Assembly (NCBI GenBank): GCA_012212665.1
Contig: GCA_012212665.1_4517.1
Length of the DNA stretch: 64,000 nt
Strand: one strand, 5' to 3'
Origin: a phage
The notes under the pieces are model-generated. The model saw only the letters and a list, made by a program, of their open reading frames with translations. It was not told the DNA's origin and did no database searches. Made by a program: the position numbers and the translations under genes. Positions within the stretch are counted from its first letter, which is position 1; every line of letters starts with the position of its first letter. Below are positions 53,486-56,740 of the stretch, in pieces.

Positions 53486-53518
53486 AATGAGATAAAGAAG
53501 ACCAGGCGGCACCTGGTC
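53486..53518 (-). terminator. Terminator-like hairpin downstream of the nrdH-like gene
   Basis: Minus-strand GACCAGG-UGCCG-CCUGGUC overlapping the stop codon, followed by a U-rich tract. Confidence 0.45.
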
Positions 53519-53840
53519 AATCTTCTATGATATCGGAGTCATATCCTAATGAAATCAAGGACTTTTTAAACTCTGCAATATTCTTTTGTTTCTTATCATT
53601 TAAAAATATGACAGGATAACGAATATTAAGTGAAGTGAATCCTGCACGTTTAGCAAGAGATACGATTAAAGGACGGTCATATTCAATCTTACCATTATTA
53701 GTGAGGACTTTATAAAATGTATAAGGAGCATTGAGCTCCTTTAAAAGTTTTGTAACAGTATAACATCCCGGACAACGTCCTACTTCTTCAGGGATGCCAT
53801 AAATTTCAATCTTGTTCTTTAAGTTCGAGTTTTGTTCCAC
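53517..53840 (-). CDS. nrdH: NrdH/glutaredoxin-like small redoxin (CPGC motif), probable GTG start
   Basis: KIEIYGIPEEVGRCPGCY...GKIEYDRPLIVSLAKRAGFTSLNIRYPVIF; no in-frame ATG near the N-terminus, but a GTG with AAGGAA 9 nt upstream. Confidence 0.5.
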   Translation of the reverse strand: MEQNSNLKNKIEIYGIPEEVGRCPGCYTVTKLLKELNAPYTFYKVLTNNGKIEYDRPLIVSLAKRAGFTSLNIRYPVIFLNDKKQKNIAEFKKSLISLGYDSDIIED

Positions 53841-54123
53841 GAGAAATAATTCCTTGGTAAGCCCAATAAGGAGGATTAACAGAATCCTCGCCAGAGTTTT
53901 CTTCAGGAAAATAAACCTGGATAACAAATCCAGATTCATCAAAGGTAAAATAAACTGTAGGCAGTTCACCTAACAATTCGGCACGAGCATTAATTTCTTC
54001 GAGATCTCGTTCACGTCCAGCCCAAAAACTAGGATTTAGACTACATTCGTAAAAATAATAGTCATTACCGAACATATCAAACCCCTTCCAACTCTCTACC
54101 ACATACCGCTCAAAACTAATCAT
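53806..54123 (-). CDS. Hypothetical acidic protein
   Basis: ORF of 105 aa; its 3' end overlaps the 5' end of the nrdH-like gene in another frame. Confidence 0.45.
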   Translation of the reverse strand: MISFERYVVESWKGFDMFGNDYYFYECSLNPSFWAGRERDLEEINARAELLGELPTVYFTFDESGFVIQVYFPEENSGEDSVNPPYWAYQGIISRGTKLELKEQD

Positions 54124-54125
54124 AA

Positions 54126-54365
54126 TTAAGCCTTTTTATCAAGAACAGAATTCAGTTTATTAGTAATTTTGTCCAAACGTTCATTGAATTCGCTGGAGGA
54201 TAAACCCTTTTCCGGAGAAATTAAACTAATCACGAAAAATACAACAGTAAAAGGAATAAGAAAAATAGCTCCAACTGCCATAAACAAAAAGAACGTTACA
54301 GTTGTAAGAAAATCAGCTAAACCTTTACGAAATTTATACATATTTACCCTTAATTGGTTAACCAA
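54126..54365 (-). CDS. Small membrane protein
   Basis: 79 aa with a hydrophobic central segment. Confidence 0.45.
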   Translation of the reverse strand: MVNQLRVNMYKFRKGLADFLTTVTFFLFMAVGAIFLIPFTVVFFVISLISPEKGLSSSEFNERLDKITNKLNSVLDKKA

Positions 54366-54455: not shown

Positions 54456-54926
54456 TTAATCATGTTTCCACACCCCATCGGTATTTGACCAAAGTCGCTG
54501 ATTATCTGATCCTCGCCACAACTTTTTGGTCGGAAGATTTTTCTCATACTTCCCATCAATAATAACATCAACATATTTAAGCATTTCTAGTTGTTTAATA
54601 TCTTCAAACTTATATCCTGTCCACAACCAAATGCTTTTATTGGGATAAAGATTTTTAATAGTTTGTACCACAGAGTGAATCACGTCTCTGTTATCAGGAT
54701 AAAGAGGGTCACCTCCAGTTATAGTTAATCCTTCTATATAATCATTATTCAAACATTCAATTAATTGTTCTAGTGTTTCACCAGTGAATGGAATACCATT
54801 TCTAGCATTCCATGTTGATTTATTATAACACCCTTCGCATTTATGCAAACAACCTGTAACGAAAAGAACGACCCTGCAACCAGGGCCATTCACAAAATCA
54901 CAAGGATAAAATCTATCATAATTCAT
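54456..54926 (-). CDS. nrdG: Anaerobic ribonucleotide reductase activating protein NrdG (radical SAM)
   Basis: 156 aa; N-terminal Cys cluster (CRVVLFVTGCLHKCEGC) typical of NrdG; T4 synteny. Confidence 0.9.
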   Translation of the reverse strand: MNYDRFYPCDFVNGPGCRVVLFVTGCLHKCEGCYNKSTWNARNGIPFTGETLEQLIECLNNDYIEGLTITGGDPLYPDNRDVIHSVVQTIKNLYPNKSIWLWTGYKFEDIKQLEMLKYVDVIIDGKYEKNLPTKKLWRGSDNQRLWSNTDGVWKHD

Positions 54927-56740
54927 TGGTGTTTAACCCTATGCATTATTTCTTTATTTTTACCGAGATTAAATCCGCGTTCGTTCGGATTTCCCAGATA
55001 GCCGCATGTTCTTCTTATTGTGTTCATCTTTTTAGGATCAGTTTCTCCACAAACTGAACAAACAAATCCATTTTCAGTAGGAGTCATTTCATGGGTACTT
55101 CCGCATGTAAAACATTTATCTACTGGCATATTAACACCAAAATAATCTAAATGCTGTGCAGCATAATCCCATACAGCCTCAAGTCCCTTTAAGTTATTTT
55201 TCATATCAGGAAGTTCAACATAAGAAATGTGACCACCCGTCGCAATGAAATGATATGGCGCTTCACGAGAAATTTTTTCAAACGGAGTGATATTTTCTTC
55301 TACTGAAACGTGGAAACTGTTAGTGTACCATCCTTTATCAGTAACATCCTTTACACTTCCATATTTTTCAGTATCGAGTTTACAGAAACGATAACACAAG
55401 TTTTCAGCAGGAGTAGAATACAAGCTAAAAGCAAATCCGGTTCTTTCTGTCCACTGTTTAAGACGGGCATTCATTTTAGTTAAAATTTCTTGTCCGATAT
55501 CACGACCAACAAGAATATTCAATTCGTGAATACCAATGTATCCTAAGGACACTGAACTTCTGCCGTTTTTAAATAACTCAATTATATCGTCATCGGGTTT
55601 AAGACGAACCCCGAATGCACCTTCTTGGTAAAGAATAGGAGCAACAGTCGCTTTAACTCCTTTTAAGGAACTAATTCTACACATCAATGCTTCAAAACAC
55701 AAATCCATTCGTTCATTGAACAATTCAACAAATTTCTGTTCGTTAAATTGTGTTCCAACATAAGAATCTAACGCAATTCGAGGAAGATTCAGCGTTACAA
55801 CACCAAGATTATTACGTCCATCAAGAATTTCATTACCAGTCGAATCTTTCCATACGCTCAAGAAACTACGGCAACCCATCGGAGAAACAGGAATAGATGA
55901 ACCAGTGATAGCTTTATTATTCTTAACTGAAATAATATCAGGATACATCCTTTTACTTGCACACTCTAGAGCAAGCTGCTTAATATCATAGTTCGGGTCG
56001 TCTTTATAAAGATTAACACCTTCTTCAACGAACATGACAAGCTTAGGAAAAATAGGAGTTATCCCATCACGGCCAAGACCTTTAATACGATTTTTCAGAA
56101 TTGCTTTCTGAATCATTCGCTCGGCCCAGTCAGTTCCCGTACCAAATGTAATCGTTACAAAAGGCGTTTGCCCGTTTGAACTAAAGAGAGTATTTACTTC
56201 ATATTCATAAGCTTGGAATGCATCATATACATCTTTTTCTGTTTTAGATTGAGCATAATTCAGTGCATCAGCGATTTGCCATTTTTCCGCGTCCTCGATA
56301 TGTTTTGCATAGGTGCGTTTAACATAAGGAGAAAGTACTTTATCTACATTCGCAAAAGTCGTTCCGCCGTATTGATGAGAAGCAACTTGCGCAGTAATTT
56401 GTGCCATAATTGCAGTAGCAACACCGATTGATTTAGGTGTTTCAATCTGCGCATTACCAAGCTTAAACCCGTTCTCAAGCATTCCTTTTAAATCTACTAA
56501 ACAGCAATTAGTAAACGGAAGAGCAGGAGAATAATCAATATCGTGGAAATGGATAATTCCGCTTTCATGCGCTTTCATAATAAAAGACGGGACCATATTT
56601 TTGGCAATGTGTTTAGACACAATACCAGCCATAAGGTCCCGTTGAGTTGGAAAAACACGAGAATCTTTATTAGCATTCTCGTTCAAAAGATCTTTATTAG
56701 TTTTACGAATTAATCCTTCAATTTCTTTTTCAATTTTCAT
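54923..56740 (-). CDS. nrdD: Anaerobic ribonucleoside-triphosphate reductase NrdD (intronless)
   Basis: 605 aa continuous ORF; C-terminal zinc ribbon (CFTCGSTH...CSVCG) and glycyl-radical motif RRTCGYLG. Confidence 0.92.
   Translation of the reverse strand: MKIEKEIEGLIRKTNKDLLNENANKDSRVFPTQRDLMAGIVSKHIAKNMVPSFIMKAHESGIIHFHDIDYSPALPFTNCCLVDLKGMLENGFKLGNAQIETPKSIGVATAIMAQITAQVASHQYGGTTFANVDKVLSPYVKRTYAKHIEDAEKWQIADALNYAQSKTEKDVYDAFQAYEYEVNTLFSSNGQTPFVTITFGTGTDWAERMIQKAILKNRIKGLGRDGITPIFPKLVMFVEEGVNLYKDDPNYDIKQLALECASKRMYPDIISVKNNKAITGSSIPVSPMGCRSFLSVWKDSTGNEILDGRNNLGVVTLNLPRIALDSYVGTQFNEQKFVELFNERMDLCFEALMCRISSLKGVKATVAPILYQEGAFGVRLKPDDDIIELFKNGRSSVSLGYIGIHELNILVGRDIGQEILTKMNARLKQWTERTGFAFSLYSTPAENLCYRFCKLDTEKYGSVKDVTDKGWYTNSFHVSVEENITPFEKISREAPYHFIATGGHISYVELPDMKNNLKGLEAVWDYAAQHLDYFGVNMPVDKCFTCGSTHEMTPTENGFVCSVCGETDPKKMNTIRRTCGYLGNPNERGFNLGKNKEIMHRVKHQ

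Follow-up and report, generated by a model that had tools for sequence, protein, structure and literature searches.

The nrdH gene of this phage very probably starts at a GTG codon (53840-53838) that lies inside the gene upstream of it, and the evidence for this start is all comparative, from related T4-type phages. All the genes of the region are on the minus strand of the window, by which we mean the whole 64,000-nucleotide stretch that was analysed. In the list of window ORFs, they form the T-even block nrdD-nrdG-55.8-ORF-X-nrdH, in which ORF-X is the gene that overlaps nrdH. The features used below, each with its basis in brackets, are as follows:

54923-56740, minus strand: nrdD (window ORFs against T4 and RB69 annotation)
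54456-54926, minus strand: nrdG (window ORFs against T4 and RB69 annotation)
54126-54341, minus strand: homologue of gene 55.8, 71 aa, a predicted membrane protein, directly 5' of ORF-X (phrog_1930, E=5.8e-36; RB69 annotation)
53806-54123, minus strand: ORF-X, 105 aa, PHROG 2749, RB69ORF082c; its last 35 nt overlap nrdH (phrog_2749, E=1.3e-49)
53517-53840, minus strand: nrdH coding sequence, 107 codons and TGA, glutaredoxin-like T4 NrdH orthologue with a probable GTG start (translation; identity to T4)
53838-53840, minus strand: probable GTG start codon of nrdH (constant across the aligned junctions)
53850-53855, minus strand: Shine-Dalgarno (SD)-like AAGGAA within the Q-G codons of ORF-X, 9 nt 5' of GTG (AAGG core constant between genera)
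53806-53840, minus strand: 35-nt dual-coding overlap, read in frame 0 for the ORF-X tail and in frame +1 for the N-terminal tail of NrdH (ORF coordinates)
53763-53774, minus strand: CPGC active-site motif, residues 23-26 (both cysteines constant in 13 homologues)
53500-53518, minus strand: terminator-like hairpin GACCAGGTGCCGCCTGGTC with a T-rich tail, beginning in the nrdH stop codon (terminator scan)
53937-53939, minus strand: first in-frame ATG, rejected as the start of a 140-aa product (used in few annotations)
53808-53810, minus strand: ATT codon of Ile11, rejected as a start, overlapping the ORF-X stop as ATTGA (sequence reading)

When window ORFs were set against the RB69 and T4 annotations, the synteny of nrdH was that of T4-type NrdH, which is 3' of nrdD-nrdG-55.8 and 5' of 55.6/55.5. 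A 1-kb query over the region matched 677 phage records, 419 of which cover at least 80% of the query. The best matches were Mosigvirus (RB69-like) phages, with 98-98.6% identity.

The nrdH frame is open from 53969 down to its stop codon at 53517-53519. The redoxin domain starts KIEIYGIPEEVGRCPGCY, and the Ile codon of its KIEIYG motif is the ATT at 53810-53808. Counting 5' from this codon, the in-frame ATG, GTG and TTG codons are GTG at 10 codons, TTG at 39, ATG at 43, TTG at 44 and GTG at 53. A sequence-only reading had found no in-frame ATG within about 45 codons of the domain, which is approximately right, and had put the first ATG deep inside the overlapping 105-aa gene. This sole in-frame ATG (53939-53937) is indeed 134 nt inside ORF-X. 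A GTG was said to be 35 nt inside the upstream ORF and preceded by AAGGAA, and we find the same arrangement: the GTG lies 35 nt inside ORF-X if the stop codon is counted, and AAGGAA (53855-53850) is separated from it by a 9-nt spacer. A 9-nt spacer between SD and start is among the longest that are still efficient. The nrdH frame is +1 relative to ORF-X, whose TGA (53808-53806) has its T in common with the ATT. The two strands of the 64-kb window together contain only 7 instances of AAGGA followed by GTG after 5-10 nt, with no excess over shuffled sequences. By our estimate, the chance that such a motif falls in frame just before the domain is roughly 0.3%, which makes coincidence unlikely. 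The main weight for the GTG start comes from conservation in the compared sequences, not from the rarity of the motif.

The homologous GTG is annotated as the nrdH start in T4 (NP_049686), RB69 (AAP75983), VIPECOMC06, PST, ECML-359 and UP19. In an alignment of six junctions from five genera, both AAGG and GTG are constant columns; the alignment covers Mosigvirus, Tequatrovirus with and without ORF-X, Gaprivervirus, Dhakavirus and Kanagawavirus. GTG is constant in four further junctions outside this alignment, and the AV-type and phi25-307 types have both AAGG and GTG. Three phages have a junction as in the window and are annotated from its GTG: RB69, VIPECOMC06 and PST, the last being a Yersinia phage of the genus Tequatrovirus with ORF-X. 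In ECML-359 (Gaprivervirus) and UP19 (Dhakavirus), the ORF-X homologues contain AAGGAG, 9 nt and then GTG, and ECML-359 has an in-frame TGA directly 5' of GTG. Kanagawavirus Q7622 keeps the GTG and has an additional ATG six codons further 5'. The phi25-307-type Mosigvirus junction, which belongs to a different ORF-X allele, reads AAGGGGTAATTTCCTGTG, with an in-frame TAA two codons 5' of the GTG start.

The conservation of AAGG and GTG in genomes that carry ORF-X is confounded, because ORF-X is itself under coding constraint there. Genomes without ORF-X, namely T4 and the AV-type, retain AAGGAA, at a 5-nt spacing, and GTG. T4 nrdH (NC_000866 41805-42113; NP_049686 / AAD42635, "NrdH glutaredoxin", 102 aa) is annotated from GTG, and its junction reads ...AGTAAGGAATAGTTGTGAAACAAAATAAGATTGAA. 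Like the window gene, it follows nrdD-nrdG-55.8 and has GTG with an AAGGAA SD; unlike the window, T4 has no ORF-X, its GTG comes 2 nt after the 55.8 stop, the SD spacer is 5 nt and an in-frame TAA lies three codons 5' of GTG. The AV-type Mosigvirus junction, also without ORF-X, reads ...GGCAAGGAATAATTGTGGAACACAAC and starts at GTG. The distance from GTG to KIEIYG differs between the window and its relatives by multiples of three (15 nt against T4; 9 nt against ECML-359, UP19 and Q7622), and T4 has the same first nrdH codons, GTG-RAA-CAA-AAY. In T4, ECML-359 and phi25-307, an in-frame stop 2-3 codons 5' of GTG makes GTG the only canonical start (ATG, GTG or TTG) left in the open stretch. GTG initiation, which the sequence-only reading had considered probable, is therefore backed by orthologue annotations, by the constant AAGG and GTG and by these three independent junction types in which no other canonical start is left.

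The same junctions bear on the idea that NrdH is made as an ORF-X fusion through a programmed +1 ribosomal frameshift in the overlap. In the window genome, the nrdH frame is open for 43 codons 5' of GTG and is +1 relative to ORF-X, which speaks for a frameshift. In T4 and AV-type genomes, however, ORF-X is absent and NrdH is encoded as a free-standing protein from the same GTG. The stop just before GTG in the nrdH frame of ECML-359 and phi25-307 means that any frameshift would be confined to about 20-30 nt. The overlaps of the different genera have no common slippery or stimulatory motif, and the nrdH frame 5' of GTG is without coding constraint. We regard a frameshift as exceedingly improbable.

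To locate where coding constraint on the nrdH frame begins, substitutions were counted between the window and relatives that are 86-96% identical to it over the ORF-X/nrdH stretch:

5' of GTG: 19-23 substitutions, of which 16-18 are synonymous in the ORF-X frame and 1 in the nrdH frame
35-nt overlap: 1 substitution, 0 synonymous in the ORF-X frame (the change gives ORF-X an earlier stop) and 1 synonymous in the nrdH frame
3' of the ORF-X stop: 56 (or 5) substitutions, ORF-X frame not applicable, 34 (or 5) synonymous in the nrdH frame

Against divergent relatives, the density of substitutions was 1/35 nt in the overlap, 22/283 upstream and 56/289 downstream. Synonymous changes thus switch from the ORF-X frame to the nrdH frame, which indicates that the nrdH frame is protein-coding from GTG and not before. 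Judged from the changes relative to T4-like alleles, 34/56 of which are synonymous, nrdH is under purifying selection.

These counts also bear on the upstream ATG at 53939, from which translation would give a 140-aa protein with a hydrophobic N-terminal extension (MNLDLLSRFIFLKK...). It is the first ATG of the open frame, and MZ234025, PhAPEC2 and ST2 annotate a 140-aa nrdH from this ATG or its equivalent. These records omit ORF-X, however, although it belongs to a family with a PHROG match of E=1e-49. No SD is visible 5' of this ATG. The extension lies in an alternative frame of a conserved gene, with only 0-1 synonymous substitutions in the nrdH frame, and it is either broken by stops or lacking altogether in T4, ECML-359, phi25-307 and AV-type genomes. 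Among public contigs, 249 carry the exact 107-aa GTG product, whereas 1 has the exact 140-aa ATG form that was queried; the cluster contains two further 140-aa variants, each on 1-2 contigs. Initiation at this ATG is highly improbable.

The ATT (53810-53808), which overlaps the stop codon of ORF-X, is very unlikely to be the start. Ribosomes reinitiating there would make a 97-residue protein that begins at strand beta-1. The ATTGA overlap is similar to coupling junctions of the ATGA type, and distant orthologues begin only 1-2 residues ahead of IEIYG. An N-terminus at this position would also be structurally tolerable, as Met1 of T4 NrdC aligns with NrdH residue 10. There is, however, no SD-like sequence within 5-13 nt 5' of the ATT, and initiation at ATT in E. 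coli has about 1% or less of the efficiency of ATG. ATT-GAA encodes the conserved I-E of KIEIYG in all homologues, including T4 and the AV-type, where no gene ends at this point. The GTG, the SD and the codon-phased indels between GTG and KIEIYG are kept even without ORF-X, which also argues against the ATT. A minor product from the ATT is nevertheless conceivable.

A sequencing indel or a decaying gene would be another way to explain the missing ATG. The RB69 reference nrdH has a 2-nt indel elsewhere in the gene, which cuts the product to 90 aa, so errors or lesions do occur in nrdH. Against this explanation, the junction is the same, or almost the same, in many genomes that were sequenced independently (the 419 records mentioned above), and the full-length nrdH frame is intact in the window and under purifying selection. 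We consider an error or a decaying gene hardly credible as the reason for the missing ATG. The ATT start, the frameshift and the indel had all been listed as alternatives in the sequence-only reading, and each is contradicted or made unnecessary by the comparative data.

Comparison with orthologues had been proposed as a check that might reveal a conserved ATG disrupted in this genome. The clade instead has the upstream GTG. Distant genera (Jiaodavirus, Karamvirus, Krischvirus, Pseudotevenvirus, Lazarusvirus, Gelderlandvirus and others) start at an ATG about 1-7 codons before the strand, near IEIYG, so GTG is a trait of one clade and not of the whole family. In the sequences compared, the GTG start is clade-wide in Tequatrovirus, Mosigvirus, Gaprivervirus, Dhakavirus and Kanagawavirus, and it is neither an error nor the mark of a pseudogene. 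IMG/VR scans with NNN at the position of GTG gave 3 and 5 true junctions, all with GTG, as well as two unrelated matches, which is too few for a census. An ATG or TTG in place of GTG, the classic signature of a start codon, was seen in none of the IMG/VR junctions found.

Taken with initiation at GTG, the sequence suggests how nrdH may be translated. Ordinary SD-directed initiation at GUG has the best support, with ribosomes that would bind directly to the AAGGAA site. The product would be a 107-residue protein of the glutaredoxin fold, in which strand beta-1 (KIEIYG) is preceded by a variable tail made up of the first 9 residues, M-EQNSNLKN. SD and GTG both fall within the last 50 nt of ORF-X and are written into its conserved C-terminal motif. 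This motif is Y-Q-G-I-I-S-R-G in the window and W-x-Y-Q/E-G-(I/V/G)-I-(S/T)-(R/C)-G across homologues. AAGG falls in the Q/E-G codons, and GTG is formed by the R/C-G codons (xGT-GGx). GTG is preserved even where the ORF-X Arg codon (CGT) is replaced by Cys (TGT). Judging by these alignments, the dual-coding start is common to a whole clade of T-even phages. GTG may be used instead of ATG because the ORF-X overlap constrains the codon. Ribosomes that translate ORF-X and terminate 32 nt 3' of GTG probably assist initiation through translational coupling.

A stronger dependence on ORF-X can be imagined, in which NrdH synthesis would be obligatorily dependent on ORF-X translation and terminating ribosomes would reach back to GUG or restart at AUU. 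ORF-X would then be a mobile cassette that both carries the nrdH ribosome-binding site and sets its level, and the use of GTG would be a frozen consequence of dual coding with the conserved R/C-G dipeptide. We think this version unlikely. RNA folding of the initiation region gave no significant structure over the site (z = 0.78), and a mechanism gated by a hairpin, or one in which coupling acts by unfolding, is therefore without support. In the literature searched, neither an experimentally mapped N-terminus of T4 NrdH nor a map of initiating ribosomes for the mRNA of a T4-type phage was found.

A downstream SD and start inside the upstream ORF are common in compact phage and bacterial operons; PMC2784483 is one paper that discusses this. 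ORF-X and nrdH resemble coupled, overlapping co-directional genes in that the upstream ORF ends shortly 3' of the downstream start. Their overlap is 35 nt, in contrast to the usual 1-4 nt (ATGA or TAATG) of coupled genes.

Downstream of nrdH, the hairpin GACCAGGTGCCGCCTGGTC is GC-rich, has a terminator-like score on both strands and has a T-rich tail on each side. As it begins in the nrdH stop codon, nrdH appears to close the transcription unit. The hairpin is kept in RB69 and VIPECOMC06, and an analogous one can be read from the T4 sequence 3' of the stop. About 45 nt separate the hairpin (53500-53518) from the next minus-strand ORF. A promoter scan of the region found sites no more numerous than in shuffled sequence, and no dedicated nrdH promoter is claimed.

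ORF-X homologues occur at the same position with a similar overlap in Mosigvirus, some Tequatrovirus, Gaprivervirus, Dhakavirus and Kanagawavirus. Both Mosigvirus and Tequatrovirus include genomes with and without ORF-X, and the gene has at least two divergent alleles. From this distribution, ORF-X behaves as a mosaic cassette that carries the putative ribosome-binding site of nrdH. Between PST and the window, ORF-X differs at 3/283 nt and the nrdH body at 55/289 nt, the PST nrdH body being T4-like. The breakpoint in PST is at the KIE codons, which means that ORF-X brings along the SD, the GTG and the first 9 codons of nrdH. The sequences are consistent with a loss of ORF-X from T4 by deletion across an AAGG microhomology, after which T4 would have kept GTG as a relic.

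The NrdH protein is 86% identical to T4 NrdH over residues 8-107 and matches phrog_22 (PHROG 22; E=1.2e-15). Homologues of it occur in roughly 1,350 phage records. It shares with T4 NrdH the CPGC motif, the C-terminal ...GYD.DIIED and a terminator-like hairpin after the stop. The match to Pfam Glutaredoxin PF00462 is marginal: 21.0 bits, below the gathering cut-off of 22.9, with E=3.8e-4 and covering residues 22-57 only. A profile built from 13 homologues matched T4 NrdC glutaredoxin (PDB 1AAZ, 1ABA) at E=2e-9, followed by other glutaredoxins. T4 NrdC, or "T4 thioredoxin", is the closest solved structure by profile, over nearly the whole domain, and its CxxC likewise follows beta-1. It is only a distant paralogue of NrdH, however, with a single-sequence E of 0.01. 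Its motif is CVYC and its ATG start lies directly at beta-1, whereas NrdH, with CPGC, is longer at both ends, by an N-terminal tail and by about 15 C-terminal residues. Single-sequence AlphaFold2 models were of low confidence (pLDDT 47 for NrdH and 51 for ORF-X). The T4 and RB69 records carry the note "has glutaredoxin activity", which is annotation text only.

The sequence-only reading had called the gene nrdH-like. This is right in the sense of T4 naming, but the bacterial NrdH-redoxin family was not matched. A scan of NCBIfam at E<=1 found no NrdH model and only a weak match to a YruB family (13.6 bits against a cut-off of 88.6), and a PDB profile search at E<=0.01 returned no bacterial NrdH-redoxin structure. 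Because the profile matches NrdC and neither NCBIfam nor PDB gave an NrdH-redoxin, the protein is predicted to be a glutaredoxin-fold protein of the T4 NrdC type with a CPGC site. "NrdH" is then a historical T4 gene name and does not stand for membership of the bacterial NrdH family. Bacterial NrdH-redoxin (TIGR02194 type; E. coli NrdH, in class Ib nrdHIEF) bears the same gene name and is, like the phage protein, a small CxxC protein encoded beside ribonucleotide reductase genes; it has the glutaredoxin fold, which is predicted for the phage protein. The neighbours of phage nrdH are the class III genes nrdD and nrdG, not class Ib nrdEF, and the active site of bacterial NrdH-redoxin is C-V/M-Q-C in contrast to CPGC.

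Among close relatives, the NrdH tail before beta-1 varies (MEQNSNLKN-K, MKQN-K, MEHN-K, MGQN-L, MGQNST-K and MDQKLT-K). The T4 tail is 5 codons shorter than that of the window (VKQN-K against VEQNSNLKN-K, with the start codon read as V). Since both length and sequence of the tail are variable, residues 1-10 of NrdH seem to be under little constraint besides the ORF-X overlap.

The GTG start is already known, both from the long-standing T4 and RB69 annotations and from the majority of public records. Most public records call the 107-aa GTG product, a few call the 140-aa form and some call nothing at the site. This disagreement arises because the start is a GTG inside another gene. The MZ234025 annotation starts at the counterpart of the ATG at window 53939, and HX01 (JX536493) leaves nrdH without any annotated feature. 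The comparative evidence settles the correct nrdH call, and its value is mainly for annotation quality. The locus is also a small example of a ribosome-binding site within the conserved C-terminus of a horizontally exchanged upstream gene, and it raises no new question.

RB69 (AY303349; AAP75983, AAP75984) is of the same genus-level lineage as the window, with 97.9% DNA identity. It has the identical ORF-X/nrdH overlap, and its nrdH is annotated from the GTG 35 nt inside ORF082c. RB69ORF082c is annotated from a later start than ORF-X, which gives it 270 nt instead of the 318 nt of the window. The 2-nt nrdH deletion in the RB69 reference (AY303349 / NC_004928) reads AAACAAA--GATATT against AAACAAAAGAATATT and leads to the 90-aa product with an aberrant C-terminus. 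It reflects either a sequencing error or a true lesion of the stock that was sequenced. Upstream of ORF-X, the 55.8 gene of the window ends ...AAAAAGGCTTAA (54126-54145). The T4 55.8/nrdH junction (...AGTAAGGAATAGTTGTGAAACAAAAT) has AAGGAAT and GTGRAACAAAAY in common with the ORF-X tail (window 53830-53860).
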